DNA of 53,366 nucleotides from a virus (taxonomy: Duplodnaviria; Caudoviricetes): positions 1-53,366 of IMG/VR virus record IMGVR_UViG_3300005611_000037. One strand, 5' to 3'. The notes under the pieces were generated by a model, which was not told where the DNA came from, ran no database searches, and saw nothing but the letters and a program-made list of their open reading frames with translations. Shown here piece after piece: positions 16,634 through 49,752 of this stretch. Within the stretch, counting starts at the first letter, position 1. Every line of letters begins with the position of its first letter. Made by a program: the position numbers and the translations under genes.

Positions 16634-17002
16634 TTATCTTGATCTTTTTTTGCCTGATTTCTTTTTAACAACACCAGACTTTTTAGATCCCTTTTTTAAC
16701 TTTGTAACTCCAGCTTTACCAGAGCCACCCATCATACCTCGGATAGCATCTTTTCTTGCTCTAAAACCAACAGCACCACCATAAGCAAAATTAAGCACAC
16801 CACCTGGGCCTCTTTGACCACCTATTTTTTGTGGTGTTAGTGGTCTTCCTCTCATTGGTATGCCACCAATGTTTGGTCCACTAGAGCCGATAGGTCCGTT
16901 ACCACCAATTTGAATAGGGCTACCCGAGCCTGGTTGTAATGGTACTGGTCCGCCCATATTCATTTTTTTAACAGAGCCGCCTTTTTTCATTTTTTGTCGC
17001 AT
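16634..17002 (-). CDS. Gly/Lys-rich low-complexity protein with several MxxGG motifs
   Basis: KMKKGGSV, KMNMGGPV, FAYGGAV. Confidence 0.65.
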   Translation of the reverse strand: MRQKMKKGGSVKKMNMGGPVPLQPGSGSPIQIGGNGPIGSSGPNIGGIPMRGRPLTPQKIGGQRGPGGVLNFAYGGAVGFRARKDAIRGMMGGSGKAGVTKLKKGSKKSGVVKKKSGKKRSR

Positions 17003-17511
17003 TTCAATTTCCTTTTTGTAACAAATTCATCGAATATTTCTTTTGTCCAATTTGAGTAGTAACCTAACTGCTCAATTTTTTTTGATGCGTCCACAAGCTC
17101 TTTATGTCTTTGAACGAAAACCATATACATGGAATCGTGGGGATCCAGATCTGCGTTGTTTTCAAAACCTGGTTTGTCTTCATGATTTGGGTGTGAAGAC
17201 ATAATCCACAAATCTAGTTTAACACATAAATCGTTCATAATGTCTACCCTTGCATCAAACTCTTCATCGCTAATGTGATCCCAATTGTTGTTGACATAGA
17301 TTAAAACATCTAAGCTATCATCGAAATCAACAATGGCTTGAGTTAAATCCAACCAATCATTTCTTTTGCAAATTTGTATTTTAACTCTGTTTTGTTCCCA
17401 AGATTTTTTAGCAAATGGACAAGCTGGTAAACCATTATGATAATCGGACTTTGGTTCAAGAACTTCTTTTGACCATTCGCGTATTGTTTTTCCAGGGGTA
17501 AATAATTTCAT
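16987..17511 (-). CDS. DUF1415-like protein
   Basis: LPACPFAK, SSHP, FVQR motifs. Confidence 0.55.
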   Translation of the reverse strand: MKLFTPGKTIREWSKEVLEPKSDYHNGLPACPFAKKSWEQNRVKIQICKRNDWLDLTQAIVDFDDSLDVLIYVNNNWDHISDEEFDARVDIMNDLCVKLDLWIMSSHPNHEDKPGFENNADLDPHDSMYMVFVQRHKELVDASKKIEQLGYYSNWTKEIFDEFVTKRKLKCDKK

Positions 17512-17514
17512 TAA

Positions 17515-17610
17515 TTATTTTTTCTTGCGACTTTTTTTGTTTTTATTTTTGCCTTCGTTTCTCAACCATTCTTTTAAAAATCTAAAAGATTCTTCAACCC
17601 CATACAACAT
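17515..17610 (-). CDS. 31-aa basic peptide (MLYGVEESFRFLKEWL...KKSRKKK)
   Basis: Manual translation; TAATG coupling with the upstream ORF. Confidence 0.4.
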   Translation of the reverse strand: MLYGVEESFRFLKEWLRNEGKNKNKKSRKKK

Positions 17611-17735
17611 TATTTTTTAACTCTAATTTTTCTAACACGAACTTTTTTAAGTTTGGATTTAAGTCTTGGTTTTTTAACACGCAATCTTGGCGACTTAGAA
17701 ATTTGTTTTGCCATGGAAGATCTCCTAATGGCCAT
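17610..17735 (-). CDS. 41-aa extremely basic peptide (MAIRRSSMAKQISKSPRLRVKK...)
   Basis: Manual translation; TAATG coupling at both ends; GAGG RBS. Confidence 0.6.
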   Translation of the reverse strand: MAIRRSSMAKQISKSPRLRVKKPRLKSKLKKVRVRKIRVKK

Positions 17736-20197
17736 TACTTACCTCGATAAAAGTCAAGGGCTTTGAAACTTTGTGATTGTTCCAAACGATCGCGAGCGAT
17801 GTCGTCTTTCATTTCAGCAATGTCTCTTTGTAGGTTTAAACGTTCTTGTGCCAATTGTCCAGATTGCATTAACTTCATAGCATCGAACTCTTGTCTTTGT
17901 ACAAACTCTTCACGTTTTCTTTGGACATCATCGGCTTTAATGTCAAGCTCTTTATCACGCAACTCGACCAATGGGTCTGGGGCTGGTGGTGGTGGCATAA
18001 AGATCTGATTGATCTGTGCCATTAATTGTGAAGCTGTTTGAGCTACGCTTTTTGCTACCGATTCTTTTAACTGCTCTTGATATTGTTGTGCTTGTTCTGG
18101 TGGCAAAGATTGGAGCTGTTGCGTAAATGCTTGGAACTCTGGATCTTGAGAATTTTGTTGATCCACAATTTCTGCCGCTCTAAAAGAAATGTGCTGATAA
18201 ATATGTGCTTGAATGAGCGACAGAACTTGTGGATTGTTTTGTGCTGTTATGGTGTTGTACAAAGATAAGTGCGTCTGAATGTGCGCATCGTGATCTTGGT
18301 TAGCAAAAGCTTGAGCAGGTACTCCCGAAATCAAACTAGCATTTTCACTTGCTGGATCGATTGGTTGAGGGGGTTGAGGGGGTGGGAGCAACTGCTCAAT
18401 ATTTTGTACTCCCATGGCTGCATACATTCTACGATATGCCTCATACATACCATTAGGGCCATGGATTTGTGGGTTTGATTGTACTGTTTTCAACATTTCT
18501 TGTGCCAACATAACTCTTTGTGACATAGAGAAAACGTTAGGGTCTGATACTGGCAAGACATCAATACGCTCATCAAAGTCCATAGCTTTGATGGCTTGAT
18601 TGCCATTGGCTGTCATGTATGGGTATTCTGGTGGTAGATACTCACCAAATACTTTGGACAACAAATTAAATTCTATTTTTTGACTGGCATGCAATCTTTT
18701 ATGAATGGAACTCATAACTCTGGTACCACGCTCAAGTAAAGCTACTGTAGTACCTACAGGGGCATTTTGGTTGGCATCGCCAACTTGCATATCTGTAATA
18801 GATGCGAAACGCCTACCACTATCTACCAAGATTCCCAAAAGAGAGAGGAGAGTTTGAGAAGGCTCCTTGAAAGGCAATGGCACAAAGGCGTCTCGCAGAC
18901 TGCCACCTGGAGCGTCCATGTCTCTGAACTCTCCTGGTTGTAATGGTTGGTCATCATTACGTATGCGAATGCCACGCGCCTTAAAGCCAGCAGGCAAATT
19001 CGATAAAGTTCCAGCGTCTATTAGCTGTCTTAAAATAGAAGTTGAAGCTTTGGATAACCCACCGATCATGTGTGTTAAGCCGAAGCCATAAAATCCTAAA
19101 CCTGGTAAAAATTTGTATTGAACAAAGTAATTGATTTTTTGTTTTAAAACATCTTCTGGTTTGTAGTTTCTTCTGATTGATAAAATCTCATCGTTGGTTC
19201 TTGATATGGTAACGATGTAAGGCAATTTAATACCTGTTTCTTCCCCATTGGGATCGCGGTCTTCAAAACCTGGGAGATCTAATTCAGTATGTACTTCATA
19301 AATTTCACACCTATCATCTTCACGATAGCTAGGCTCAATGCCTTGTAGTTCATCAATCTCTTCTTGTACTTGATCGTAATCTTCTGGACTGTAACCGCCA
19401 GACATATCGATCATTTTGTAAAACCCTATTTGCTGTAATTTTTTGACATCGTTCTTTGACATGTCAATAACGTGCGTCACTCTAGTAGCGTTATACAGAT
19501 CGGTTGCTGAATAAGGCACAATGAGATCTTCACTAGGAATAAATTTAGAAACAGCACGTCCTAAGTTTTGGTCGTAATAAACTTTACGGAAAGCAGAACC
19601 TGAGAGGGGTAAATAAAACAAGAGTTGGTCTGTTTCAGGCTCATACTCTTTCATAATGTGCATGAGTTGATAGTTCATAAACTCTTGCACTCTTGTTGCT
19701 TGTTGATCAATTTCTGGATTGCTTTGTCCTAATACTTGAGTTTTAACTGGACCTTGCGATGGTAGCAATTCATTGTAAGCTTGGGATTGAAACTGAGTAA
19801 CCGATTCAGCTAGTAAAGGGTGCATAACACCAGAAGCACCTTCAAATGGTTGGGTGCGTTCTTCGTACTTCATACCAAGATATTCCAAACCATTGCGATA
19901 GGTTTGTTCCCATTCTTCTCTTGATGCTTTGTCGGCTTCAACGCCATCGAGAATGTCAAGCTTGACTTTACTGAGGTCAGTATCGTCCATGACTTCAGCT
20001 AGGTTGGCATAAAAGTCAATGTTTTCTGGGGGTGGTAAAGCGCCACCAAATACTAAAGTACCATCGTCTAGTTGTTGAAACTCAGAAATGTCTTGGATCT
20101 CTTCTTCAGGAACCTCAACTTCCATAGCTTTGTTACGATCACGAACTTCTAGTTCGGCTTGTTCATCAACACTAATTACTTTATCTATGTCTGCCAT
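17735..20197 (-). CDS. portal protein
   Basis: 820 aa; HPLLAESVTQFQ, GSAFRKVYYD, YGFGL.H.IG, APVGTTVALLE; located between terL and the scaffold. Confidence 0.9.
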   Translation of the reverse strand: MADIDKVISVDEQAELEVRDRNKAMEVEVPEEEIQDISEFQQLDDGTLVFGGALPPPENIDFYANLAEVMDDTDLSKVKLDILDGVEADKASREEWEQTYRNGLEYLGMKYEERTQPFEGASGVMHPLLAESVTQFQSQAYNELLPSQGPVKTQVLGQSNPEIDQQATRVQEFMNYQLMHIMKEYEPETDQLLFYLPLSGSAFRKVYYDQNLGRAVSKFIPSEDLIVPYSATDLYNATRVTHVIDMSKNDVKKLQQIGFYKMIDMSGGYSPEDYDQVQEEIDELQGIEPSYREDDRCEIYEVHTELDLPGFEDRDPNGEETGIKLPYIVTISRTNDEILSIRRNYKPEDVLKQKINYFVQYKFLPGLGFYGFGLTHMIGGLSKASTSILRQLIDAGTLSNLPAGFKARGIRIRNDDQPLQPGEFRDMDAPGGSLRDAFVPLPFKEPSQTLLSLLGILVDSGRRFASITDMQVGDANQNAPVGTTVALLERGTRVMSSIHKRLHASQKIEFNLLSKVFGEYLPPEYPYMTANGNQAIKAMDFDERIDVLPVSDPNVFSMSQRVMLAQEMLKTVQSNPQIHGPNGMYEAYRRMYAAMGVQNIEQLLPPPQPPQPIDPASENASLISGVPAQAFANQDHDAHIQTHLSLYNTITAQNNPQVLSLIQAHIYQHISFRAAEIVDQQNSQDPEFQAFTQQLQSLPPEQAQQYQEQLKESVAKSVAQTASQLMAQINQIFMPPPPAPDPLVELRDKELDIKADDVQRKREEFVQRQEFDAMKLMQSGQLAQERLNLQRDIAEMKDDIARDRLEQSQSFKALDFYRGK

Positions 20198-20550
20198 TAT
20201 TTTATCTCTCTACCAAAACCTCTTTTTGCTACGCCTGAAGATTTTCTTCTTACTATACCACCTTTTTTAATTCCATACTTCTCTCTGAGTGATTTAATTA
20301 ATCCAGGTCTAGGACCACGAGGTGATGGATTAGGAGAAAAAACTTCTTTTTCTACGCCTGCTTTTTTAGCTTCTTGTTTTATTTGTGATATTTCTTGATC
20401 GGCTTTGTTTATTTTGTTTTGTCCTGCTTTGCTATCTGCTGGATAATTACTTTCATCGCCAACTTTTTTTTCAGATTCTCCTCTTTGTTTTTTGTTTTGT
20501 GCTTTTTTAAGTCTTGCTTTTAAAAACTTAACAACCCCTTTGGCAGCCAT
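20197..20550 (-). CDS. small basic protein, paralogue 3 (ends KKGGIV...SSGVAKRGFGREIK)
   Basis: TAATG-coupled; shared C-terminal motif. Confidence 0.75.
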   Translation of the reverse strand: MAAKGVVKFLKARLKKAQNKKQRGESEKKVGDESNYPADSKAGQNKINKADQEISQIKQEAKKAGVEKEVFSPNPSPRGPRPGLIKSLREKYGIKKGGIVRRKSSGVAKRGFGREIK

Positions 20551-20834
20551 TACTTTATTTCTTTTCCGAAACCTTTAAGCGCTACGCCAGAAGATTTTGA
20601 TTTTGAAGAGACAACTCCGCCACTTTTCATTTCTTGCACTTTGCTTCCTCCAATACCTACTCCTAATGAACCTGCAAGAGCGGGTGAAACATTTTTAATT
20701 TTCTCAATGTTTTTCATAGTTCTAAGCTTCATTTCAGCATTACGTCTTTTTTCTGGCCGACTAAATGGATCCATTGATTTAGCTCTAAGCTTAAGTTTCT
20801 TAAGACCTTCTTTGATTGCTTTTCCCATTGCCAT
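20550..20834 (-). CDS. small basic protein, paralogue 2 (ends KSGGVV...SSGVALKGFGKEIK)
   Basis: TAATG-coupled; shared C-terminal motif. Confidence 0.75.
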   Translation of the reverse strand: MAMGKAIKEGLKKLKLRAKSMDPFSRPEKRRNAEMKLRTMKNIEKIKNVSPALAGSLGVGIGGSKVQEMKSGGVVSSKSKSSGVALKGFGKEIK

Positions 20835-21385
20835 TATTTTATTTCCTTACCATAACCTCTGAGTGCTACACCAGAGGATCTTCTTTTGACTGGTTTTCTA
20901 ACACTAGATTTAACCATACCACCTCTTTTCATTTTTTTAGGGCCAGGTAATCTTTTACTAACGTAATCTTCTTTTGTTTTTCTTATGCTTTTTTTAACTT
21001 CTGATTCGTAAAGTTTTTCTAAGTTGCTATCTTTTGGTGTAATGCCTCTTTTTTTAAGGTAATCAACTTTGCCTTGTCGAATGCTTTTCTTTGCTTCTGA
21101 TTCAAAAATTTTATCCAACTCTTTGTCGGATAATTTTTTTAGAGGAGTTTTATTTTTTAAAGCTGGTTTAACTACTTTGTTTACATAATTTTTAGTAAAG
21201 GATTGCAACTCTTGTCTTTCCATTCCTTTCTTAATATCTTTCTTGACTGCTTTATCAAACTTTTCAAAATCAATTTCATTTTGTATTTGCTGTGATTTAG
21301 CCGATGGGTTTAATTTCTCGCCAACAACGCCTTCTTTTTTCTTTTTACCCTTAAGAACGCCCTTGATTAATTTTGTAATTGCCAT
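20834..21385 (-). CDS. small basic protein, paralogue 1 (ends KRGGMV...SSGVALRGYGKEIK)
   Basis: TAATG-coupled; shared C-terminal motif. Confidence 0.75.
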   Translation of the reverse strand: MAITKLIKGVLKGKKKKEGVVGEKLNPSAKSQQIQNEIDFEKFDKAVKKDIKKGMERQELQSFTKNYVNKVVKPALKNKTPLKKLSDKELDKIFESEAKKSIRQGKVDYLKKRGITPKDSNLEKLYESEVKKSIRKTKEDYVSKRLPGPKKMKRGGMVKSSVRKPVKRRSSGVALRGYGKEIK

Positions 21386-22851
21386 TAGTAATATATCCTT
21401 TCTTTTGGTATTGGTTCTTCGTCTTCTAAGTCCGAATACAGACTTATGAAATTTCCTTGCCTAAATCTTAATATGGCTTGCGTCATTGAGTCAACAAAAT
21501 CGTCATGCTCCCCATAAGGGAAAGCTGCGCATTCTTCCATGACTTCGTCAGCAAAAATGGTATCAGGCGCCCAAACCAACCCAGATTCAAATACTGGAGC
21601 GACCGAATGCACACGAGTTGTCTTGTCTTTACCTCTGGTGGGCCTGTAATTAACTACAGGTATTCCCGCCATGCGCAACTCGTGAGTCAAAGGCAAGCCG
21701 CTTGCTTGTGATTCTACCAAGACTGCGTCTGGTTGCCAATACTGATATTCTTCATAAGCGATACTTTTTAATTCAGGGAAATCCCAACGCCCACGTTTGG
21801 CGTCCAACAAAATAATGGATTCAGGCGCATCGGCATTGGGGCGAAACACACCCCAAGTTGTAATGGCTGAGTAGTCTGCGGTTTGTTTGGCTGAGAAAGC
21901 TGTATCGTAAGATTGCAAGACGTAACTCGGTTCGGGTGGGTTTTTATTCTCCCACTTCTGCCACCATTCACGTTTGATAATCGCCCCTTCTTCCGAGGTT
22001 GGGTTTTGCATGTACTGAGCGTTCCACTTAGCAATCGGCAAAGAGGCCTTAACCGCTTCGAGTTCTTCGATCTTCCAAAACTCAGGCCACAAAGGTTCAC
22101 CGCTTTCCAAGATGGCAGGTAGCTCAACCACTTCCCATTGGTCGGCATGCGCTTCGCCCATACGTCTAATAAGTTTCTCAGTTAGATCCAAAGTCGACCA
22201 TCTGGTCATAACCACCACAATCGAACCACCAGGTTGCAAACGCTGACGCGGTCCAGAGGTGTACCACTCGTAAGCCGACTCCAAAGCCGAAGGCGACATG
22301 GCGTCCTGTTCTGAATGCGGGTCATCAATGATGAGCAGATCGGCACCTCGTCCTGTGATCGCGCCCCCGACCCCTGCGGCAAAGTATTCGCCCCCTGCAC
22401 TGGTTTCCCAACGTCCTGCCGACTTGGAATCAGCCGACAGCGAAACCTTGTCAAAAACACGCTTGTACTCTTCGGTGTCCATAAGGTTACGCACCTTACG
22501 CCCGAACCTCTGTGAAAGTTCTGCGGTGTGGGTGGTCTGCATGATCTTCATGTCGGGTCTGATGCCCATCATGTAAGAGGGGAAATACACCGAAGCAAAC
22601 TCAGACTTGGTGTGACGTGGGGGCATGTTGACTATGAGACGTTTGATCTTGCCGCGCGCGACTGCTTCGAGCTTACGCGCAAAAAGCTTGTGATGTTCGC
22701 CCTCGATGAAGCCGTCCCAGACTGCTTTGATGTAACTAAGGAAGTTTTTCTGAGCTTGGTCGCGATTGTCGATCTGCTTGAGCTTTTCCTTGATCATAAG
22801 GATCTCGCGCAACTTATCGTCAGCAAGGTGGTCTAGTTTAGGCTTCGTCAT
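21385..22851 (-). CDS. terL: terminase large subunit
   Basis: Walker A NMPPRHTKS, Walker B LLIIDDP, MTRW coupling motif, nuclease SYDTA and HDDFVDS. Confidence 0.95.
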   Translation of the reverse strand: MTKPKLDHLADDKLREILMIKEKLKQIDNRDQAQKNFLSYIKAVWDGFIEGEHHKLFARKLEAVARGKIKRLIVNMPPRHTKSEFASVYFPSYMMGIRPDMKIMQTTHTAELSQRFGRKVRNLMDTEEYKRVFDKVSLSADSKSAGRWETSAGGEYFAAGVGGAITGRGADLLIIDDPHSEQDAMSPSALESAYEWYTSGPRQRLQPGGSIVVVMTRWSTLDLTEKLIRRMGEAHADQWEVVELPAILESGEPLWPEFWKIEELEAVKASLPIAKWNAQYMQNPTSEEGAIIKREWWQKWENKNPPEPSYVLQSYDTAFSAKQTADYSAITTWGVFRPNADAPESIILLDAKRGRWDFPELKSIAYEEYQYWQPDAVLVESQASGLPLTHELRMAGIPVVNYRPTRGKDKTTRVHSVAPVFESGLVWAPDTIFADEVMEECAAFPYGEHDDFVDSMTQAILRFRQGNFISLYSDLEDEEPIPKERIYY

Positions 22852-23446
22852 TGGTAATACTTAAAATGTATGCACTCACTTGGCGCGGTTCGTTTAATTT
22901 TATCTCGATAAGTTCTGGTTGACAAAACCCATTTAAATACTGCTCAAGTCGCCAAAAGGTTTTGCGCCCTGGGTCAGCCAGCATAATCTCAGCAACACCT
23001 GCCTTGAGTGCTTGCTTGATGAACTTGACCAAGCCGTCTAGTTGTTCGTCCCAAAAACAAACATCAGCGCCCACAATCCAATCGATGTGCGCGAGGTCGC
23101 CAAGGTCAAGGCGCGTGAGATCTGTGATGCGCAACATGCCTTGAGTGTTGTTTAGCTCTCTGATGAGTTCATAGTAGAGGGCAACGTTGGGGTCGTAGTC
23201 GACCGACTGCACATGGGCGCCTTTACGCGCGAGCATGCTTGAGACCACGCCCCAGCCACAGCCGATTTCCATGATCTCGTGGTCGGTGACATCGTAGTCG
23301 GACAAGTAGTCCATCAGTGCCAGTGATGCGTTCCATACCTTGTTGCCGTGGGCTTGGTATGAAATTTTTTTGTTTTTAATGTTTCTTACCATGCCATGGG
23401 CGCTAGTTGGAATCACGATGTCGTGAAAAGTAAAACTCTGCCTCAT
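22838..23446 (-). CDS. SAM-dependent methyltransferase, Methyltransf_16-like (putative protein-lysine MTase)
   Basis: GNKVWNASLALMDYL, IMEIGCGWG, IVGADVCF, LADPGR. Confidence 0.8.
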   Translation of the reverse strand: MRQSFTFHDIVIPTSAHGMVRNIKNKKISYQAHGNKVWNASLALMDYLSDYDVTDHEIMEIGCGWGVVSSMLARKGAHVQSVDYDPNVALYYELIRELNNTQGMLRITDLTRLDLGDLAHIDWIVGADVCFWDEQLDGLVKFIKQALKAGVAEIMLADPGRKTFWRLEQYLNGFCQPELIEIKLNEPRQVSAYILSITNDEA

Positions 23447-23676: not shown

Positions 23677-23717
23677 AACTGTAAGTTATTTAGGTAAATA
23701 ACTACGGAGAAAATAAA

Positions 23718-24065
23718 ATGAAAGATATAAGTCTTTTAAAATCGTTGAGAGAAATGAAAAATTCTCTTGAAAGTAATACCAAGGTACAAAAATACCTTGA
23801 GGTAATGTCTCAGCTTTCAGCCTGTGAAAGTAGAATAAAGAATGAGATCAAAGACAATTTGATTGTTAAAGATGATCGGTTCGGGTTTCGTAGCGGGTGG
23901 CACAATTGGACCAAATCTAAATCTAGAATTAAACCAATAATTACTGATGGCACTAGAATTAATGGCTCAATTGGCAATAGTGGGCAACTGCTTCACTATA
24001 CTGTCAGCCACCGCAAAGGCTATGAAGTAAAACCTACGGCAACAATTAAATTGGAGATGTTCTAA
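23718..24065 (+). CDS. hypothetical early protein
   Basis: GGAGAAAATAAA-ATG RBS; 115 aa. Confidence 0.75.
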   Translation: MKDISLLKSLREMKNSLESNTKVQKYLEVMSQLSACESRIKNEIKDNLIVKDDRFGFRSGWHNWTKSKSRIKPIITDGTRINGSIGNSGQLLHYTVSHRKGYEVKPTATIKLEMF

Positions 24066-24397
24066 TGGAAAGATTACCAAATGATTTAATGCCCAACTTT
24101 GCTGACCGAGAGGTCAGCAAGGAACAGGCAGCCGAGGAGCTCTATCAAGCTTTGTGCAAAATTGCTGAAGCTAATGGCCACGATCCAAAATGGGAAGTCT
24201 CAATAATGAAAGATCATAATAAATATGAAGAGATTAATGAGGGTGACATTTGGGTGACTTATGAAGCGGGGCCGTGGGAATGGGGCGTTGGCTATTCTTT
24301 AGGCTCACACCCTGAAAGTTATACTTGGCCTACAACTAAGCAAGATTGGTATCTTGAGACCTATTATGGATTTGATGTCATCTTTACAGACATCTAA
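24065..24397 (+). CDS. hypothetical acidic early protein
   Basis: TAATG coupling; aromatic/acidic (YEAGPWEWG). Confidence 0.75.
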   Translation: MERLPNDLMPNFADREVSKEQAAEELYQALCKIAEANGHDPKWEVSIMKDHNKYEEINEGDIWVTYEAGPWEWGVGYSLGSHPESYTWPTTKQDWYLETYYGFDVIFTDI

Positions 24398-24432
24398 CAG
24401 GAGCCTGGGGCAGCAATGCCCCAGGATTTATT

Positions 24433-24618: not shown

Positions 24619-24668
24619 ATTTGGAGATCTCCAACAAGATCCAGATCGGGCTGGAGATCTCCACCAAG

Positions 24669-24693
24669 ACCAGGCGAAAGCCTGGTTTTTTTT
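24669..24693 (+). terminator. intrinsic terminator
   Basis: CCAGGC-GAAA-GCCTGG followed by T8. Confidence 0.9.
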
Positions 24694-24781: not shown

Positions 24782-24844
24782 TAAAACCCCTGGAATCGCA
24801 ATACTTGGAGCTGACAAACAAACAAAGATAGATAAATTTAGTTG

Positions 24845-40792: not shown

Positions 40793-43700
40793 CCAAGCCC
40801 TAACAGTTTGTTTATTTCTTCTTGTCTTAAAGCGTCTACATTCCTAACAGTAGGTTGACCAACATTAGGTGTTCTTGTAACAACTGGCTGAATGTTTAAG
40901 TCTTGTGGTCTGGGTTGAGGTTGTGAAAAAGTTGGCTGATTAAAACTACCAACTAAGTCTTGACCACCAAGCATCATACCTAACTGATAAAGCTTTTCTA
41001 TTGGCACAGGTTGTCTAGCTTTGTTGTAATCCGATCGCAATGCTTCAGATAGTAAACCTTCTTGCAATTCTATTGGTTTAAATATTCCTTGCATGACTAA
41101 TTCTCTATTAGATACTTTTGCTCTTGCAAGTTCTCTGTCAATTTTGTATGAATCTAAACCTAATAAACGAGCATCTTCAATAGCGGTATAAAGATCTCGT
41201 AAAGAATTGTAACGTCCTTCGTTTGAACGAATGTATGATTTAACAAAGTCTTCAGCGTCTCTTAAGTTAGAGGAACGCAATACTCTATTAAATTCATTAG
41301 AAGAGTTTCTTATAGCTTCATTGGCGCTAAACCCTTTGTATCTTAAAGACTTTTCTATTTGTGGTTTAACTACTTTCAAACCACTAAAAGCTTGTACCAT
41401 GGTTTCGGCTGGATCTAAACGTGTACCTTTTCTAGTAATTAGTTTGTCTTCACCTTGTCCATCTGTGCTACCAAAGATACTGCTGGTTACAACTCTTGGA
41501 AAATCTTTTTGTTCAAATTTAATTCCTAAGACACCGCCCCCAGGGTCAGCAGAAATGTTAAATGGTACTACAGAAGGAGCTATTTCATCAGTTATGTAAG
41601 CGATGCTTTTTAATAACTTATCGCCTTCAGTATCAGTGTCATTCCAAATTGTTCTACCTGTATCTGTTTCTCCGTTGTAAGCTTGCAAGAAAGTATTAAT
41701 GCCTAATGATGGCTCATAGAATGGTGAGAATAATTCACTGGCTGCTGAAGTAGTTGCTCTAAATGAAGTATCGAGTAAAGATCTTTCGTTTCTATTACCA
41801 TTCATAACTTCCATCATTAATGCTTTTACAGGCCTTTGTAAGTAATCGTAAGGATTGGTATAACTAAAGTTGTAAAAGCCTGTTGGATTACCATTTTTAT
41901 CTGAACCAGTTGGAATCAATGTTGCTGTCTTATCCCATGGTGCAGCGAAAGATCTCTTGTAAGCGTCTGTCTTTTCTTGGTCAACTCCTGTTAAAGCATT
42001 TCCTGTAGCAACCAAAGCTGTTGGTAATCCCATAGTTACAGTTGCAGCCCCAGCCAATCTTCTAGCACCTATCTTTGCTAACTCTGAGTTACCACTAGCT
42101 AATTCGGCTGATGCACGAGCAAGGGTATTGGCTGTGTTTCTAATAATCTCAGAAGGGAAAGCAACGAAGTTACCAAGCAAAGGAAAATATTTCATTGCTT
42201 TTACTGCATCTGGTACACGTGAATAAGTCGGTACAGTATTCAAAGTTATTTCAGCAGCTTCAGCTTTAACAAATTTTTCTAGTGCTTCTCCTGTTAAATC
42301 ACTAGCCTTTACAACTGGACCATTTGGTGTGTTGCTAATAATGTCTTTAAATTCTATGGTTGCACGAGCAGATCTGACCGGTATAGGTTGAGCGCCAGAA
42401 GCTTTTATAGCATTTTTTAATTTAGCTTGTTCAGCATTCCATGCAAACATACGAGCAGCATCATCAGACATGGAGTAAGCTTTTTCAAATGTCTCTATAC
42501 CTGTAAGCTTTTTAGCTTTTCTTCCTAATTCACTGCCTGTAACTTTTTGATAAATACTAGAATCTTCTGTAGCATATCGCGCTAAAGTTCTAATCTCATC
42601 TAAAACTGCGCCACCTCTTTGTATGATTCCATAATCTTTAGCATCTTTAACTACACCTCTTTTCAATGCTCTTTTTGATGGATCAAATAAACCTGCAAAA
42701 ACTGTATTAACAGCATCAACAAATCTACCGCTTGCTCCTAGATTACCATTCATCAAGGCAAAGAAAGGAATAGAGGTAAAGTTTCTTATTTGAGTAGTAG
42801 GAGATAAAACAGTTTTACCATATTGTGTGCCTGCTTTTAATGCGAGCAATCCTTTTATTGACTGCCCTATGGCGCCAGTGTTTGCTAACAGATCGGTAGT
42901 TGCGCCCATGATGGCATCGTGAAAAATATCTTGTGCATACAAATCTTTTAAAGCTCCAGCATTTTCTGAAAACTTTTTATACTTAATACCTTCTTGAACT
43001 ATTTCATCTGGTAATTGTTGTCCTGGTGAAAGCTGTCCTCTAAAATCTTTTAAAAATTTTTGTTGTCCAAACTGTTGTGCATTGTCATTTAAAACTTTGA
43101 TGTCATCAAACATTTTAGATTTACCAACCAAAGATCCTAGTTTTGCCATAGTTGTTTGTGTTGCTAAAGCAGTATTAGCTATTGCTTCTTTCCAATCATT
43201 TTTACCATAACCTGTTACCTCGCCTAAAGCTTTTCTTACTTCAGGTAAATTGTTTAAAGTTCTACCTTTTAAAGAACCAAACTGTAAACCTTCTACTAGA
43301 AAGTTAGGTGTTTCAAAATCATAAGCTGCTTTATTTTTTGGCCCAGGATTAAGTAATCCATCAAAAGCTGTTTCTGCTTCTATTCTAGAAATGCCCATTT
43401 TTTGTTGCATTTCTCTTAGAGCATTTTCTTTTAAATCTTGTGGAACTGTATAACCAGCATCTAAAAAAGCTTTGTAAGATCTAGAACCATAAGTTCCTTG
43501 GTTTGCAGCAATAGCATTTTTTACTTCATCAGGAATAAATAATTTTACTAACTGATCATCACCTGGTGTTGAAAGATCCAAAATTTCTTTTTCTAACAAA
43601 TTAATGCTGTTGCGATTTTCTTCTAACATTTTTGATATAGATAAATTTTCATCAATACCCAAAGCTTTATAATCTATTTTATTACCAGCACCTTCATAAC

Positions 43701-44715
43701 TTTTTATATTACGTAAAGCTTTTGCTTGCAGTTCTTTTGATGCGTCCGCTAATTCTCTGCCAAGTAATTCTGGTCTTTCAAAACCAAGTCTACTTTGTGG
43801 CGCCATAAAATCTTGAATATTTTTTGACAAATTAAGAGCATCTTGTTGCCCTAAGTTACCACCTTTGGTTGCCAACTCTACGTCTTTATTAATTTGATTA
43901 AAGGTGGTTTCTACATTTTCTTTAATGGCTCCTAGTTGAGCAGTTTTAGCAGCAGATAATTGAGCTACCAAATCATTTGGTTTTCTTCCTGCAAAGGTAA
44001 AATTTTTACGAAAAAAATCACCAAACATATTGTTAGCTAATGAAGCATCACCTTCTACGTTCTTACCTTTTGATAAAGCTTTAGCCACAGGAGAAGCCAG
44101 AGGAGCAATCATATCGCTTGCTAACCCAGCAGTTTTACCAACAAGTCCTAGGGCAGCAGGTGCAGTTAACATAATCCCAGCAGTTTCACCGACCACTCCC
44201 AATCTTTCCATCAAACGAGCAGAAGCTTTTTCAGCACCATTTAGTCTAGCCAATCTATCTTCGTCCGATTCGCTATCAAAAAATACATCGGTTAAGGTTT
44301 GTACGTCATCGGTAGCAACAGCGCCATCTACCGCTGCGGCTCCTAGTATTTGTTTTGCTTTACCAGCTTTAGATAGTAAGCCAACTGTACCCAAACCTGG
44401 GACACCAAACTGTGTTATAAACTGTGCTGTTTTACCGACATCGCCTTCAACCTCTGGTTTAATGCTTTCAAAGTATTCGTTAACATCATCGGTTAGATCT
44501 GTATCAAAAAACAAATCTACACCAGTTGTTGCTAATTCTGTTAGACCTTGAGGGATTGAAATTAAACCAGCGCCAATACCACGACCTAGTTCACCAAGCA
44601 CAGATTGATCTGGAGATCTAAGTCTATTTAAACGTTCTTCTGCTTTTTGAATAGCTTCTGGTGAATCGTCTTCGACATATAATCTTGTGCCATCATTTAA
44701 AGTTATTATTGGCAT
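40789..44715 (-). CDS. large internal virion (ejection) protein
   Basis: 1308 aa helical protein, last gene of the ejection cluster. Confidence 0.65.
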   Translation of the reverse strand: MPIITLNDGTRLYVEDDSPEAIQKAEERLNRLRSPDQSVLGELGRGIGAGLISIPQGLTELATTGVDLFFDTDLTDDVNEYFESIKPEVEGDVGKTAQFITQFGVPGLGTVGLLSKAGKAKQILGAAAVDGAVATDDVQTLTDVFFDSESDEDRLARLNGAEKASARLMERLGVVGETAGIMLTAPAALGLVGKTAGLASDMIAPLASPVAKALSKGKNVEGDASLANNMFGDFFRKNFTFAGRKPNDLVAQLSAAKTAQLGAIKENVETTFNQINKDVELATKGGNLGQQDALNLSKNIQDFMAPQSRLGFERPELLGRELADASKELQAKALRNIKSYEGAGNKIDYKALGIDENLSISKMLEENRNSINLLEKEILDLSTPGDDQLVKLFIPDEVKNAIAANQGTYGSRSYKAFLDAGYTVPQDLKENALREMQQKMGISRIEAETAFDGLLNPGPKNKAAYDFETPNFLVEGLQFGSLKGRTLNNLPEVRKALGEVTGYGKNDWKEAIANTALATQTTMAKLGSLVGKSKMFDDIKVLNDNAQQFGQQKFLKDFRGQLSPGQQLPDEIVQEGIKYKKFSENAGALKDLYAQDIFHDAIMGATTDLLANTGAIGQSIKGLLALKAGTQYGKTVLSPTTQIRNFTSIPFFALMNGNLGASGRFVDAVNTVFAGLFDPSKRALKRGVVKDAKDYGIIQRGGAVLDEIRTLARYATEDSSIYQKVTGSELGRKAKKLTGIETFEKAYSMSDDAARMFAWNAEQAKLKNAIKASGAQPIPVRSARATIEFKDIISNTPNGPVVKASDLTGEALEKFVKAEAAEITLNTVPTYSRVPDAVKAMKYFPLLGNFVAFPSEIIRNTANTLARASAELASGNSELAKIGARRLAGAATVTMGLPTALVATGNALTGVDQEKTDAYKRSFAAPWDKTATLIPTGSDKNGNPTGFYNFSYTNPYDYLQRPVKALMMEVMNGNRNERSLLDTSFRATTSAASELFSPFYEPSLGINTFLQAYNGETDTGRTIWNDTDTEGDKLLKSIAYITDEIAPSVVPFNISADPGGGVLGIKFEQKDFPRVVTSSIFGSTDGQGEDKLITRKGTRLDPAETMVQAFSGLKVVKPQIEKSLRYKGFSANEAIRNSSNEFNRVLRSSNLRDAEDFVKSYIRSNEGRYNSLRDLYTAIEDARLLGLDSYKIDRELARAKVSNRELVMQGIFKPIELQEGLLSEALRSDYNKARQPVPIEKLYQLGMMLGGQDLVGSFNQPTFSQPQPRPQDLNIQPVVTRTPNVGQPTVRNVDALRQEEINKLLGLG

Positions 44716-44717
44716 AG

Positions 44718-46082
44718 TTATACCTCTTGTATGGCATAATTTTGTCTTATGTAATTATTAAAATCTGTTATGTTGTCAAATTGATTTGCTAAAGATAATA
44801 GTGTTAATGAATCAATTACATTGCCGCTTGTATCAACAATATTAATTCTATCTGGTGATGTTCCTGGGCTTAAGGCATTTTTTACAATAGCTACTAATTG
44901 TTCTCCTTGAAATCCTGAAAGTTGATCTAATATACTTTTTTGAGTTTTACCTTTACCTGTCAAATACATTTCAGCAAGATCAGGATTTTCTTGTAGCATT
45001 TCTAATGTTCGTATGGCTGCTGGTACTGATTCTTCTTGTCTGGTTTTTTCTCCCAAGTAACCTTCACCAAAAGCAACTGCTGCATTAATTGGTGCTATGC
45101 CTTCTCTTGGTTTCATCATGTTTAAAAATCCAGCCAATGAAGCTTGTGGATTTTTTTGTATGAAATCAAAAATAGGATTGGTTGATGTTACTGGCGGTTG
45201 AACCACATCACCGCTTGGTGCTGGTGTTGGTGCTGGTGTGGGAGTTTGATCTGCGCCAACTACTAGAGCAGACACTTGTTCTTTTTCATCTTTTGGAGAC
45301 ATTGCAGAACCAAGTACTGCAGCACTACCTAATCCACCTATTACTGCTGGAACTACTGAAGATGTTGTACTAACAGCAGGAGTTACTGGTACCAATGGAC
45401 CACCTTGTGGAACTAATGGACCACCTTGTTGTGGTACTACTTGTTGACTTGATGGTACGCCCGATGGTTGACCTTCGCCAGATTTTACTTTAACTCTTTC
45501 TTTTTTAGCTTTACTAGATTGCTCTAAAGATTCTTTTGACTTGTCGGTAGATGTTGGTTTGTCTTCTTTTGGTTTACTTTTTTTACCAAAATGTTTTTTG
45601 TAAATATCTTTTATTGACCTTATGGTTGATTTAATAATACCACCTTTGTTCATTTTTTTAGGCAGACTATCTACTATGCCACCATCTGCCATTTTTGGTT
45701 TCATTTCTTCTGACAGTTTTTGTTCAGCAATGTTTTGTGCTAAAGATAAAAGTTGTTGTTGCTCTTGTGGCTCAACATCGTTAAGAATTTCTTGCATTTC
45801 TGGATCGTTAACAAGCATGTTTGTAAGATCAATGCCTAAAGCAGTGCCTGCTAGTTTCCCTGCTGGTACGTTTAATGGACTTAAGTTAAGTGCTTTATTG
45901 GCTGCCATAGCCGATCTTATTGCTCTATTAGCACCAGCTCCAAGTGGTCCTGCAAAGTAAAGAGGTGCAAGTGCCATGCTTAGTGGATCATCAGGGTCAG
46001 CAATAAAGTCTGTAATATCTCTTAAGTTAAAGCTTTCTGGATCTTTCTCTAAGCTAAGAAAATCTAATATACCATTACTCAT
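44718..46082 (-). CDS. putative internal virion protein
   Basis: Low-complexity; KMADGGIV and KMNKGGII motifs. Confidence 0.55.
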   Translation of the reverse strand: MSNGILDFLSLEKDPESFNLRDITDFIADPDDPLSMALAPLYFAGPLGAGANRAIRSAMAANKALNLSPLNVPAGKLAGTALGIDLTNMLVNDPEMQEILNDVEPQEQQQLLSLAQNIAEQKLSEEMKPKMADGGIVDSLPKKMNKGGIIKSTIRSIKDIYKKHFGKKSKPKEDKPTSTDKSKESLEQSSKAKKERVKVKSGEGQPSGVPSSQQVVPQQGGPLVPQGGPLVPVTPAVSTTSSVVPAVIGGLGSAAVLGSAMSPKDEKEQVSALVVGADQTPTPAPTPAPSGDVVQPPVTSTNPIFDFIQKNPQASLAGFLNMMKPREGIAPINAAVAFGEGYLGEKTRQEESVPAAIRTLEMLQENPDLAEMYLTGKGKTQKSILDQLSGFQGEQLVAIVKNALSPGTSPDRINIVDTSGNVIDSLTLLSLANQFDNITDFNNYIRQNYAIQEV

Positions 46083-47344
46083 TAAGACATTGCTCCTATA
46101 CCACCGCCAACGCCAGCACCGCCAGCTTGACCGCCTTGTTGACCACCGCCAAAGAGACTACCTAAAAAGTTACCAAAGTTAAAGCCGCCACCTTGACCGC
46201 CACCTTGACCGCCAAATATGGTTGCTAAAGAACCTAAAGCACCAATGCCTTGAGCTATACCGCTAGGCTGTTGGTAAGATTGTGGTTGATATAGTTGAGT
46301 TGTAGTACCACCGCCCATTTGATTGTATGGTAAACCAGCTAATAATTGCTGTCCTCTCATCAGTCTTTGGAATGGCATGTCAGCCATTCTTTGTGCTGCT
46401 TGGAATTGTCTGCTTAATGCAGATTGTTGAGTTTGTTGTCCTTGACCGCCTAGCTGATTCATGAGACCAATTTGTGAAGCTAATTGTTGTTGTCCTTGTT
46501 GTCCAAGACCTGAGAAACCAGAACCGATCTGTCCAAACTGACTACCAAGTCCTGCTGTGGTTTGTCCTAGTCCTGCTATCTGTTGACCGATACCAGCTTG
46601 TTGTGTACCGAGACCAGCTTGCAATCCAGCCAATCCACTTTGTGCTTGTCTTGCTTGTTCAAATGCTGACTGTGCTTGTTGTTGCGCTCTACCAAAACCA
46701 CTACTTCTAAGGGCGCCTATTCTTTCTGAAGCACCTCTTGCTGCTTGTCGTGCCAACTCTTCTTGTCCAAGTCTTGCTCTTGAACCACCAAAAGCGCCAC
46801 TAGAAATAGCTCTTTGTCTAGCGCCAATATCGGATTGTGCTAGACCTTCACTTACGTCTCTCATGGTTTGTTGAACAACGTCTTGTTCAAATGGGTCGTA
46901 AAAAGCTCTACCCATTCTTGGATCGTACATGCCTAGACTACCAAGTCCTGTTTGTTCGGCACGAGATAAGGTATCTAAACCTCGACCCATAGCACGTTCA
47001 GCCTCTGGTAAGTATTCCAATGCACCTCTAGTAACGTCTTCTTGTTGTCTTAATAGTCTTTCTGATTCTTGAAGATAAGGTCTAAAACCACCCAGATCTT
47101 GTGTTAAAGCACGGGCTTGTAATTGTAAAGGAGTAAGTCCTGCTGTTTGTTCTATTGGCACGTCCATTCTTGCGCCAATCATGCCTGGGCTTTCTCCTGG
47201 GACACCAAAGTAAGAAGCAAGCATTCTTCGGCTGTAGTCCTCTACATAAGGAGAAATCATTCTGTAACTTGTTTCTGGTGTTACAACAGTTTGGGCTGGT
47301 GGACCCATTTTGGTTGTGCTTTGTAAAAAATCAAATATGCTCAT
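46082..47344 (-). CDS. putative DNA pilot/ejection protein
   Basis: Gln/Gly-rich heptads, GAFGGSR motif, G-rich hydrophobic C-terminus. Confidence 0.65.
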   Translation of the reverse strand: MSIFDFLQSTTKMGPPAQTVVTPETSYRMISPYVEDYSRRMLASYFGVPGESPGMIGARMDVPIEQTAGLTPLQLQARALTQDLGGFRPYLQESERLLRQQEDVTRGALEYLPEAERAMGRGLDTLSRAEQTGLGSLGMYDPRMGRAFYDPFEQDVVQQTMRDVSEGLAQSDIGARQRAISSGAFGGSRARLGQEELARQAARGASERIGALRSSGFGRAQQQAQSAFEQARQAQSGLAGLQAGLGTQQAGIGQQIAGLGQTTAGLGSQFGQIGSGFSGLGQQGQQQLASQIGLMNQLGGQGQQTQQSALSRQFQAAQRMADMPFQRLMRGQQLLAGLPYNQMGGGTTTQLYQPQSYQQPSGIAQGIGALGSLATIFGGQGGGQGGGFNFGNFLGSLFGGGQQGGQAGGAGVGGGIGAMS

Positions 47345-48849
47345 TAGATCATGCTCCCTAAACCTTCGGCTAATTTTTGCTGGTCATACAATTGTTTTGC
47401 TCCCATCATTCTTTGTTCGTACATATCACTTGGGTCAGCGCCCATCATTAAACCCAAACCTCTAACTGCTGCTGCATTGGTAACAAACTCACCATCGGAA
47501 AGCATGGCTGGGATTTCATCGCCTTTTTCACCGCCTGGGCCTGTTATTAGTTTGTCTCTTTCTGGAAACTCACTAACGTCAACTCCAGCTTCGCCTGTGC
47601 CTTCAGCCGCATAAAGCTGTCCAGGTATTCTTCTTGATTGTAAATTAAATAAAGCTTCTTGTGGTGGTGCAACTAATGGACTAAATGGTACACCTCTAGC
47701 TTGAGCGTATAGTTTTTCTACTTCACTTGGGTAATACATGTAAGCTGGTGGTCTGTCCATGTAAGGATCTACAGTAATAGATTGTCCAGGTGTTGTAGCA
47801 CCATACATAGAATAAGGGTTAAACTCTGTACTTTGACCCATTCCTGGCATACCGCCCATTCCTGGCATACCGCCCATGCTTGGCATACCGCCATAACCAC
47901 CGCCTTGGCCACCGCCAAACATACCAAATAGTTTGGCTAGTTGTTCTTGTTGTTCTTTAATTCTTTTGTCTTGTTGTTTTTGTGCTAAGTAACCTAAACC
48001 CAATCTACCTAAGTCTGACTGAAATCCGCCTATGCCACCTAGCAATGCCCCTGGACCACCGCCAGTTAGACCGCCACGTATTATGTCAGCTAAAATATTT
48101 CTTTGACCTTCAGCACCACCGCCCATCAAACTAGATAGAAAATTACCACCTTGGCCGCCACCGCCTAATCCAAGATTGCCAAAAAGACCAACCTTATCAG
48201 CACCAGGTAAAACAAATTCACCAAGGCTTCCGAGACCACCCATTATGTTGCTACCAATGTTTCCTAAAGTCGTACCAGCACCACCGAGTAAATTACCTAA
48301 ACTGCCAAGTCCACCTTTTAATGCACCACCAACGCTACCTAAACCACTTCCTATGGCAGAGCCTGCTGCGCCCAATCCACTTCCTATAGCTGACCCAACT
48401 CCAGGTATTAATAAACTGCCTAAAAGTGCAGCAGTTTTTGGATTGTCTTTAATGCTACCAACAAGACCTTTACCACTTGGGTCAAGTCCTAAAATATCGT
48501 CTGTTACTTTTTTGAAACCTTTCTTTAGTTTTTTAACAAGACCACCCAAAACCATTTTTTGTGGTTCTTCCATTAAATTAGCTATACCACCCATTTCTTC
48601 TGCTTCTAAATTTTGAATGGCTTGTAACATATCCATTCTATCTTTTTGTCTAAGAAACTCTTCAACCTCGTCCAGATCTTCTTGACTCATATCCAAAGCA
48701 TCTGGTGGTAGCATTGGCATACCGCCCATCATACCGCCCATAAAATAACCTGGGACATCGTAGCCAAATTTATCTTCTACTAAAGCTGGTTCTTCTTTTG
48801 CTAGTTTTTGTAAACCTTCGTTTGCTTGTGCTAAACTTTTTAAACTCAT
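47344..48849 (-). CDS. putative internal virion protein with glycine zipper
   Basis: Gly-rich hydrophobic helices; C-terminal GPGGEKGDEIPAMLSDGEFV.NA.AV domain. Confidence 0.65.
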   Translation of the reverse strand: MSLKSLAQANEGLQKLAKEEPALVEDKFGYDVPGYFMGGMMGGMPMLPPDALDMSQEDLDEVEEFLRQKDRMDMLQAIQNLEAEEMGGIANLMEEPQKMVLGGLVKKLKKGFKKVTDDILGLDPSGKGLVGSIKDNPKTAALLGSLLIPGVGSAIGSGLGAAGSAIGSGLGSVGGALKGGLGSLGNLLGGAGTTLGNIGSNIMGGLGSLGEFVLPGADKVGLFGNLGLGGGGQGGNFLSSLMGGGAEGQRNILADIIRGGLTGGGPGALLGGIGGFQSDLGRLGLGYLAQKQQDKRIKEQQEQLAKLFGMFGGGQGGGYGGMPSMGGMPGMGGMPGMGQSTEFNPYSMYGATTPGQSITVDPYMDRPPAYMYYPSEVEKLYAQARGVPFSPLVAPPQEALFNLQSRRIPGQLYAAEGTGEAGVDVSEFPERDKLITGPGGEKGDEIPAMLSDGEFVTNAAAVRGLGLMMGADPSDMYEQRMMGAKQLYDQQKLAEGLGSMI

Positions 48850-49241
48850 TTCTCTCTAGAAATTCCTTTTGTTTTTTCAAATGTTCTGAGGCCACCTAGG
48901 CCAAGCATCCCCATTAAAATGGTGGACAGTTGTGCGAAATCAAATTCGGGTAAATTTATTTCATTATAACCGAATAAACTTAAAACAGTATATAAAAGTG
49001 GGTTTAAAATAAAGTGCCAAAGAAGAGCAAAGCCACACACCCAGCCAATAAAAGGGCGCCACCCAGCAACAAATATACTCTTATGAGCAGCCTCCGCCTT
49101 GTTGACTTCCAGTTGCGCCATATTAGCTTTGTGAATTTCGGACTTGAGTTCATATTCTAATTTGGTTTTAAGGTCTTTATCAGCTACAAATTTACCAAGT
49201 ATTTTCTCAATTGGCGATATTAAATCGTTTAAATCTATCAT
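48846..49241 (-). CDS. holin (3TM/GTA-type)
   Basis: FVAGWRPFIGWVCG, MLGLGGLRTFEK. Confidence 0.85.
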   Translation of the reverse strand: MIDLNDLISPIEKILGKFVADKDLKTKLEYELKSEIHKANMAQLEVNKAEAAHKSIFVAGWRPFIGWVCGFALLWHFILNPLLYTVLSLFGYNEINLPEFDFAQLSTILMGMLGLGGLRTFEKTKGISREK

Positions 49242-49579
49242 GAATACCTTGTTCTTTTTCTACGATCTGACATAACAGATCCACAACCTTTGTGTAATCT
49301 AGAAATAATACCACCATTTGCTTTTTTAGTGAATGTTTTCACCATGGTTGGTTTACCGCCTACACCTTGTGGTTTGGCTCTTTTTCTAGCAACAGCGCTT
49401 TTTCTTTCTGATTCACTCATACGTTTAGCAGTTGATCTGGGAACACACTTGGGATATTTTCTTTTTGAACCTTTTGCAGACTTACGCCCACAAGGTTGAA
49501 ACTTGCCTTTCTTTTTTGGCGCACCAATATCAACCCAATCACCTTTGGGTCCCTTACCAAACCATTCTGTTAAAGACAT
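49238..49579 (-). CDS. DUF5872-like basic protein
   Basis: L.EWF...WVDI...CGRK...YPKCVP; ends ANGGII...KGCGSV. Confidence 0.65.
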   Translation of the reverse strand: MSLTEWFGKGPKGDWVDIGAPKKKGKFQPCGRKSAKGSKRKYPKCVPRSTAKRMSESERKSAVARKRAKPQGVGGKPTMVKTFTKKANGGIISRLHKGCGSVMSDRRKRTRYS

Positions 49580-49752
49580 TATTTATATTTACCGCCTCTT
49601 TTTTTGTAAGTTCTAACTAGCCAAGCGTTTGCGTATGCACTTGGGTACACTTTAAATTTACGTTTTGCCTCAGACTTAACCCTAGAATATAAGGTAGGGT
49701 TGGCTGGTTTAGGACTTTTTTTGCTACTCGATGTTTTTCTTTTAGCTACCAT
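49579..49752 (-). CDS. 57-aa basic protein not in the ORF track (LYSRVKSEAKRKFKVYPSAYANAWLV..YKKRGG)
   Basis: Manual translation; TAATG coupling; resembles the N-terminal part of DUF5872 proteins. Confidence 0.75.
   Translation of the reverse strand: MVAKRKTSSSKKSPKPANPTLYSRVKSEAKRKFKVYPSAYANAWLVRTYKKRGGKYK

Follow-up and report, generated by a model that had tools for sequence, protein, structure and literature searches.

An 11-residue basic peptide unit recurs on unrelated late proteins of a marine podophage and its relatives and may be an uncleaved docking tag for head loading

The capsid-targeting sequence (CTS) of phage T4 is N-terminal, present in a single copy, and removed by the prohead protease. 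In the accessible part of PMC3012670 it is described as a short conserved peptide that is the sole feature common to diverse internal proteins and that encapsidates them, and in the accessible part of PMC10960027 the targeting peptide of family-1 encapsulins, GSLxIGSLK, is described as C-terminal, carried by unrelated cargo, and bound to the inner face of an HK97-fold shell. How head-internal proteins are chosen in podophages without a prohead protease is poorly understood. The viral record analysed here over its whole length of 53,366 bases (IMG/VR IMGVR_UViG_3300005611_000037, referred to below as the window) is 97% complete by CheckV and, judged from its sequence, is a near-complete marine podophage with the head module of HTVC023P-type pelagiphages, which, according to their describers, are widespread and among the most abundant in nature (accessible part of PMC9599517). 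A sequence-only reading of the window had singled out an octapeptide common to unrelated late proteins, [K/E]-[M/F/Y]-x-x-G-G-x-[V/I], as a candidate cargo-addressing or maturation-cleavage signal. The octapeptide is real, but it is only part of a larger 11-residue repeat and of a C-terminal tag; of the two proposed roles, addressing is favoured as the plausible one, and cleavage is unsupported given the register of the motif, its tandem arrays, and the lack of a recognisable protease. With a probability of roughly 0.38, the unit built around the octapeptide is an uncleaved, multivalent docking tag that would load disordered internal proteins into the head.

The unit is like the T4 CTS in being a short peptide common to otherwise unrelated proteins, and unlike it in being mostly C-terminal or internal (only two of the ten copies in the window are N-terminal), in being often repeated, in being found with no recognisable protease, and in having no sequence likeness to it. 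With the encapsulin peptide it has in common a C-terminal position, and the compact form GGIAIKGxGK has a similar G-small-Φ-x-Φ pattern (Φ, hydrophobic residue); however, the tag consensus, KKMKxGG[IL]A[IM]KGxGKA[FY], is not of the GSLxIGSLK type, the carriers are domain-less basic proteins rather than enzymes, the unit is repeated in tandem, and binding to the capsid is putative.

All 11 octapeptides listed by the sequence-only reading are present on the minus strand in the open reading frames (ORFs) that it named, although NFAYGGAV and GYFMGGMM are loose fits only. An extra strict match, KMLAGGYI, lies outside its range in a protein of 189 amino acids (aa) encoded beside the capsid gene. The carriers are as follows, the 11 listed octapeptides having been placed by a six-frame scan:

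20834..21385, minus strand: 183-aa basic protein, net charge +32, the leading member of a tandem trio of small proteins encoded between terminase and portal; KMKRGGMV at 20912-20935, C-terminal SSGVALRGYGKEIK at 20837-20878
20550..20834, minus strand: 94-aa basic protein; EMKSGGVV at 20610-20633, C-terminal SSGVALKGFGKEIK at 20553-20594
20197..20550, minus strand: 117-aa basic protein; GIKKGGIV at 20251-20274, C-terminal SSGVAKRGFGREIK at 20200-20241
16634..17002, minus strand: 122-aa Gly/Pro-rich basic protein, net charge +26; two N-terminal units, KMKKGGSV at 16970-16993 and KMNMGGPV at 16943-16966, and a weak NFAYGGAV at 16769-16792
16336..16509, minus strand: 57-aa protein with a compact-tag end at 16339-16386, just beyond the range first read
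44718..46082, minus strand: 454-aa protein, net charge -8, upstream of a 1308-aa virion structural protein; KMADGGIV at 45672-45695 and KMNKGGII at 45633-45656 in a linker
47344..48849, minus strand: 501-aa Gly/Met-rich protein, net charge -16; KMVLGGLV at 48535-48558, MGGIANL at 48574-48594, and a weak GYFMGGMM at 48727-48750
49238..49579, minus strand: 113-aa basic protein, phrog_23735 (function unknown); KKANGGII at 49304-49327, 21 residues before the C-terminus
11919..12488, minus strand: 189-aa protein adjoining the capsid gene; KMLAGGYI at 12336-12359

Chance was assessed over 78 ORFs (17,030 aa). The strict pattern KM..GG.[VI] occurs seven times in the window against a mean of 0.03 (maximum 2) in 2000 composition-matched shuffles within whole proteins, and the broader pattern first proposed, [KE][MFY]..GG.[VI], occurs eight times against 0.13-0.15 expected. 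Shuffles restricted to segments of 15, 30 and 60 aa gave means of 0.026-0.033 and 0/2000 reached seven, and so local K/G/M-rich composition is not the explanation. Alignments between carriers extend over the motif only, except for the three small proteins between terminase and portal, which have C-terminal ends in common: the 117-aa and 183-aa proteins align over their last 32 residues (E 2e-5). Between the 454-aa and the 183-aa protein there is an alignment of 15 residues at 60% identity (E 0.005), and nothing further aligns. The carriers are basic or Gly-rich, domain-less late proteins: searches of NCBIfam, Pfam, and PHROGs gave no family above cut-off for them, including the 183-aa protein, and the small carriers are strongly basic, at net +16 to +32. 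Capsid, portal, and terminase lack the motif, containing only GG.[LI] strings without the K/M positions. The ten loose matches all fall within the 11,758 aa of the late block, the remaining 5,438 aa having none, but this contrast is weak by itself because GG dipeptides are themselves skewed 135 to 26. KMLAGGYI may be unrelated to the tag or coincidental, since the 189-aa protein probably folds and serves as cement or decoration, the only sign of this being an Atlas lead to phage cement families (scores 0.82-0.84); KMLTGGFI occupies the matching site in one relative with 90% portal identity (L002).

A comparison set of 80 IMG/VR loci was assembled whose portals are 75-99% identical to that of the window. 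Among these uncultured relatives, the octapeptide forms the centre of a basic unit 11 residues long, K-[ST]-K-G-[MYF]-[KR]-x-G-G-Φ-Φ, and the consensus of 56 unique units, [PS]-K-[GK]-[MYF]-[KR]-x-G-G-[MVIL]-[VMA]-K-[ST]-K-G, is close to the one proposed from the window. Homologues of the three proteins encoded between terminase and portal carry at their ends one to four tandem units, as in the family of the 183-aa protein, and after these an invariant G-x-A-x-x-G-x-G. The profile built from such tails matches 242 proteins at E<=0.001; among the 120 listed, none has a Pfam domain or a functional name, 63 carry at least one unit and 19 at least two, adjacent units are spaced by 11 aa in 19 of 21 pairs, and a canonical RGRGRPK AT-hook is present, apart from the repeat, in 50. 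A scan of IMG/VR for DNA encoding KGYKxGGMMK gave 44 loci, in 31 of which the carrier is a protein of 60-102 aa that consists of six to nine units and nothing else; in 27 of the 44 a terminase, portal, capsid or Cpn10 gene of the clade can be recognised, and the rest are short contigs. Across all pairs of the six units at locus L151, 76 codon comparisons are identical, 61 differ synonymously, and 28 differ in the amino acid. The tandem units therefore conserve the peptide while their codons differ, which indicates selection on the peptide and not on a DNA repeat.

Three structural or nucleotide-level accounts of the repeat were tried and rejected. A nucleotide signal, such as an internal Shine-Dalgarno-like GGTGG with ATG, is ruled out by the glycine codons, which vary between the window copies, and by the synonymous differences among tandem units. 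A beta-solenoid is not supported by an AlphaFold2 (AF2) model of the repeat protein, which has no secondary structure and a pLDDT of 53, although a single-sequence model is a weak test. An amphipathic 11/3-helix was discarded because, by hand calculation, Y, M, and M of the unit face three different ways. A 259-aa member of the AT-hook family had no tblastn match in 50,697 GenBank phage records, and the literature listings and abstracts searched, subscription journals excepted, contain no description of the motif, of the repeat proteins, or of AT-hook virion proteins in phages.

The unit is also the first half of a C-terminal tag of about 20 aa. Fused to G-x-A-x-[KR]-G-x-G-K, it forms on many small proteins the compact sequence PKKMKxGG[IL]A[IM]KGxGKA[FY], a profile of which matches 230 proteins at E<=0.01. 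Among the 120 matches listed, none has a Pfam domain, 118 have no more than 15 aa between the end of the tag and the C-terminus, and the carriers without their last 35 residues fall into 9 BLAST-unlinked clusters of small basic proteins, some of which may be distant relatives of each other. When all loci and genomes are pooled, the final copy falls in the C-terminal quarter for 96 of 118 unique carriers. The window's three small proteins have a split tag (KMKRGGMV ... SSGVALRGYGKEIK in the 183-aa protein). The tag is compact in the 57-aa protein (16336..16509), which has 70 BLAST matches among the ORFs of the loci and seven complete relatives and aligns with the C-terminal tags of other families. 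Within the window, the tag ends no more than 15 aa from the C-terminus in these four proteins and in the 113-aa protein, and not in the 122-, 454- and 501-aa proteins.

One of the nine clusters carries a YPSAYAN motif similar to the one in a DUF5872 protein of the window (57 aa, 49579-49752, minus strand), which itself ends in YKKRGGKYK; at locus L046 (13108-13323), a protein with such a motif bears the complete tag at its C-terminus (KKMKNGGLVSIKGQGIVMKERLR). A further family of small basic proteins contains MMKKGGKVKKQGYNARLDDSLGARKGKK... and has ADGIARKGRTKGRMV as its end, at L117 (3858-4340), L130, L140, L142, L145 and L159 and in phage 023Pt_psg01 (26708-27040); Planktothrix phage Pag-Yong1 has a 368-aa protein whose end is similar to ADGIARKGRTKGRMV.

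At orthologous sites in the 501-, 454- and 113-aa proteins, the motif is retained within linkers that otherwise vary. Orthologues of the 454-aa protein keep LKNGGIASFKKGGKVI or DMAEGGIAKF at the position of the unit, six orthologues of the 501-aa protein at 64-67% identity keep EEPQKMFLGGLL, and the family of the 113-aa protein varies between KKRDGGMI, KKKDGGMI, and KKYYGGMI, with KNGGEV in more distant members. MGGIANL of the 501-aa protein, the C-terminus of which is similar to tape-measure ends, is also present in phage DSL-LC04. The strict KM form is absent in all seven complete relatives, and CRP-901 has no cognate form. Cognate forms do occur in distant relatives with other hosts, at matching gene positions and often at the very C-terminus of large proteins. 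HTVC027P and 023Pt_psg01 have ADGGR[VI]G[YF]xxG, with GGR[VI] found four times against 0.44 expected and five times against 0.57 expected, respectively; HTVC027P/HTVC023P have ADGGR[VI]G[YF] / RGGIA forms; and DSL-LC04 has SMADGGLVD, NMANGGIVQ, MADGGLV, and YAKGGLVTSKGQG. C-terminal ends among the distant relatives include YARGGLATMFTRRR, FNRGGIADVRRK, and YMDGGRV, and near-C-terminal copies include YAKGGLVTSKGQGRVI and YAKGGAV...YASGGMI.

A peptide that is short, conserved on both sides of GG, set in disordered context, repeated, and biased to the C-terminus of unrelated proteins has the signature of a binding peptide, and we infer that the carriers may be in the virion and that the unit may bind a partner. 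One or a few copies of K-[ST]-K-G-[MYF]-[KR]-x-G-G-Φ-[VMA], usually at or near the C-terminus and often fused to G-[VIA]-A-x-[KR]-G-x-G-K, would let disordered, mostly polycationic late proteins and Gly-rich ejection-type proteins enter the procapsid and stay in the head with the DNA. The hydrophobic positions flanking the GG turn would contact a protein pocket, and the lysine flanks would add electrostatic avidity, for an acidic partner first and for DNA later. The HK97-fold capsid protein, at its inner face, is one candidate receptor; the acidic N-terminal arms of a scaffold candidate and of the portal are others. The genes of the head module that bear on this and on the alternatives are:

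10991..11899, minus strand: major capsid protein, 302 aa, HK97/Mu gpT type; Pfam Phage_capsid_4, E 7e-14; no motif; candidate receptor
12525-12992, minus strand: 155-aa head-module protein; mean column identity 75% in 32 sequences, invariant GVGGL[IL]L, no family match
12989..13984, minus strand: 331-aa helical protein, scaffold candidate and candidate receptor; N-terminal 70 residues very acidic; phrog_28737 (function unknown)
13992..14510, minus strand: phage Cpn10/GroES-like protein, 172 aa, loop VTDGGIQL; Pfam Cpn10, E 1.3e-4, 22.3 bits (cut-off 21.1)
17735..20197, minus strand: portal, 820 aa; phrog_1216, E 6e-50; acidic N-terminus; no motif; candidate receptor
21385-22851, minus strand: large terminase; no motif
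22838-23446, minus strand: gene resembling protein-lysine methyltransferases; Pfam Methyltransf_16, E 3.6e-9; first in the late operon, adjoining the terminase upstream

A complex prediction that paired the capsid protein (111 alignment rows) with the C-terminal 60 aa of the 183-aa protein (24 rows) scored 0.00 twice, with no controls, and is evidence neither way; the capsid protein has 4190 relatives at E<=0.001. A narrower, encapsulin-like principle, whereby a short Gly/hydrophobic/basic peptide, repeatable and not cleaved, attaches to the HK97-fold capsid protein at its inner face, or to the scaffold, and loads unrelated disordered proteins including AT-hook polycations, is quite unlikely as so specified. 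If it were true, a group of tailed phages among the most abundant in the ocean would use such a principle, the tag would be portable, internal-protein loading in phages would be linked with cargo loading in encapsulins, and AT-hook polycations would replace part of the counter-ions of the packaged DNA. A peptide of about 11-20 residues on nine unlinked clusters and on ejection-type proteins offers a concrete, testable handle.

Several observations weigh against a docking tag. Only four of the ten window copies are near the C-terminus, and three lie in the first third of large proteins, besides the two that are N-terminal. Counts of homologues are not independent events, and the ORF sets contain spurious six-frame ORFs. 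The docking partner is at candidate level only. The tag is not on recognisable cargo enzymes, unlike that of T4 internal proteins or encapsulin cargo, since none of the 120 and 120 listed carriers has a Pfam domain, and arrays of up to nine copies and whole-repeat proteins exceed the needs of an address. The AT-hook in 50 of the 120 listed family members fits direct DNA binding. The accessible parts of PMC9599517 and PMC10149686 mention no proteomics, protease, or internal proteins, and no virion proteomics for the group was found in the literature searched.

The main rival is that the lysine-rich unit binds the phosphate backbone or grooves of DNA directly and, as a polycation, neutralises as well as compacts the packaged genome, with no protein receptor. 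This is unlikely, although much is consistent with it: the charge of the small carriers, the AT-hooks of the family, arrays with an 11-residue period together with the 31 loci encoding whole-repeat proteins, the predicted lack of structure in the repeat protein (pLDDT 53 from a single sequence), and the location of the genes between terminase and portal. AT-hook and protamine-like proteins are similarly disordered polycations with short repeated units; however, the repeat lacks RGRP, and the window carriers, including the three small proteins, lack a canonical hook. The conserved positions are, besides lysine, glycine and hydrophobic residues (M/Y/F, then Φ-Φ), and we know of no DNA-binding counterpart of such hydrophobic and GG positions. 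Copies also occur in net-acidic proteins and acidic contexts (KMADGGIVD, EEMGGIANLMEE; net -8 and -16), and the motif persists in distant forms such as SMADGGLVD and NMANGGIVQRFQEGSDEDG; protein contact is favoured over charge alone because of these acidic occurrences. Whole-repeat K/G/M/Y proteins and the AT-hook family would be candidates for DNA-condensing core proteins of phages. To our knowledge such core proteins are described from adenoviruses and some other eukaryotic viruses, and not as tandem-repeat proteins of tailed phages.

It is doubtful that the copies have no common partner at all and represent a flexible, turn-forming, low-complexity element that spreads by duplication, slippage, and recombination and is kept for charge, disorder, or passage through the tail channel. 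Copy number and spacing do shift fast among close relatives: those of the 122-aa protein begin alike but bear K-x-G-S-KKSGV repeats instead of the units, and the window has three short paralogues where relatives with 90% portal identity show one longer protein directly upstream of the portal. Such an element would also fit the absence of the strict KM form from the complete relatives and the Gly/Met/Pro-rich low complexity that is common in the late proteins of the window. It fits less well with the local-composition shuffles, none of which yields the motif at the observed frequency, with the retention of specific residues across synonymous change and very distant relatives, and with a C-terminal tag of about 20 aa that is near-identical on nine unlinked clusters.

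Very unlikely is a processing site, at or after whose GG a host or unrecognised phage protease would cut, freeing 11-mers from the arrays or C-terminal 20-30-mers from the three small proteins, much as the adenoviral protease yields peptide mu. A hydrophobic residue ahead of GG is reminiscent of the sites cut by adenain and ubiquitin-like proteases, the carriers resemble the basic core-protein precursors of adenovirus, which are small, very basic, and DNA-associated and contain hydrophobic-x-GG strings (accessible part of PMC4246237), and tandem arrays could be peptide polyprecursors. The parallel with adenoviral (M/L/I)xGG that the sequence-only reading had drawn nevertheless fails on register: adenoviral substrates place the hydrophobic residue two positions before the first G (Met-Arg-Gly-Gly; same part of PMC4246237), whereas in 34 of the 56 unique units (M 17, Y 11, F 6) it is three before, at -3 and not -2, and the resulting M-x-x-G-G is one residue longer than M/I/L-x-G-G / M/I/L-x-G-x-G. 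Host domain and capsid lineage differ from those of adenovirus, conservation is equal on both sides of GG, and the unit recurs in tandem every 11 residues and as whole proteins. The lack of a canonical prohead protease, also claimed from the sequence, was upheld for six Pfam families: Peptidase_S77, S78, S49, and ClpP had no match at E<=1 in the 97%-complete genome, distant or novel proteases being beyond this search, and neither Peptidase_C5 (adenain-like) nor Peptidase_C48 (Ulp-like) had a match in the window. The suggestion that a late protein hides a protease fold was followed for one, the 155-aa head protein: its AF2 model (pLDDT 71) had no Foldseek match in PDB at E<=0.001 and a best Z of 4.0 in a wide structure search, so that its fold is not assigned. 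The 302-aa capsid protein is read, from its length alone, as lacking a propeptide, and is accompanied by a separate scaffold candidate. A short capsid protein with a separate scaffold is a layout usually found without a protease.

Docking to a chaperonin, with the unit mimicking the GroES mobile loop on the apical domains of GroEL either to protect disordered proteins or to compete with host GroES in favour of the phage Cpn10, is also very unlikely: although the phage encodes its own Cpn10, GroES is a core gene of HTVC023P-type genomes (accessible part of PMC9599517), both peptides combine a basic residue, GG, and hydrophobics in a flexible segment, the Cpn10 loops of relatives (KTKGG[IVL][IV]L) come close to K-x-x-GG-Φ-Φ, and multivalent arrays would suit a heptameric ring, the unit lies outside the Cpn10 fold on carriers without a Cpn10 match, is lysine-rich and highly charged, lacks the third hydrophobic (the third residue after GG is L/F in 6/7 phage Cpn10 loops, and K in 23/56 and V in 3/56 units), and shows no co-variation of its flavour with that of the loop.

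The structural genes of the window are on the minus strand. Its portal is 46-50% identical to those of 023Pt_psg01, HTVC027P, HTVC023P, and DSL-LC04, and head and tail genes are common to the window and these phages, whereas replication genes are not. Apart from the structural genes in common, none of the window's proteins had a match among the ORFs of the relatives. The early/replication region, 23700-40800, has almost no protein match in HTVC023P-type relatives, which makes the genome a mosaic in which a structural module held in common with them is joined to a replication module of another kind. The first late block runs from the methyltransferase-like gene through large terminase, three small basic genes, portal, and small basic or Gly/Pro-rich genes to the Cpn10/GroES-like gene, the 331-aa scaffold candidate, the 155-aa and 189-aa genes, capsid, Hsp20, SU10-type adaptors, and tail fibre. 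The second, 40789-53293, encodes the 1308-aa virion structural protein together with three Gly-rich proteins (454, 420 and 501 aa), a 629-aa virion protein, a holin, small basic proteins, and one protein that is read as a putative lysozyme from its sequence. No small terminase subunit was recognised, the tested ORFs beside the late operon having no PHROG match. Sequence searches of PDB with the 155-, 331- and 189-aa proteins and the portal gave nothing useful, designed helical proteins being the only matches to the 331-aa scaffold candidate.

The lysine-rich head proteins are obvious candidate substrates of the lysine-methyltransferase-like protein. As a general reader of the invariant K this enzyme was rejected: of the 132 IMG/VR loci searched, just five have its gene, and these five belong to the subgroup with 90% portal identity, none of the seven complete relatives has a match, and the distant motif forms lack the K. 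The Cpn10/GroES-like protein has an N-terminal extension of about 65 aa, and an Hsp20/alpha-crystallin protein (10466-10864, minus strand), for which no counterpart was found in the seven complete relatives or in the loci searched, is a second chaperone-type gene in the head module. Two minus-strand ORFs, 29607-30653 and 31076-32080, look by eye like putative DNA methyltransferases (SPPY-type, and with a cytosine-5-type N-terminus). A 531-aa protein (14741-16336, minus strand) is extremely Pro/Met-rich, with repeated VEPIMRPMPMP-like units and GMGGMGDMGGMGG, and the 501-aa protein (47344-48849, minus strand) contains GGMPSMGGMPGMGGMPGMG; the Gly-Gly-Met runs of these two proteins recall what we take to be a similar feature, the GGM tail of GroEL.

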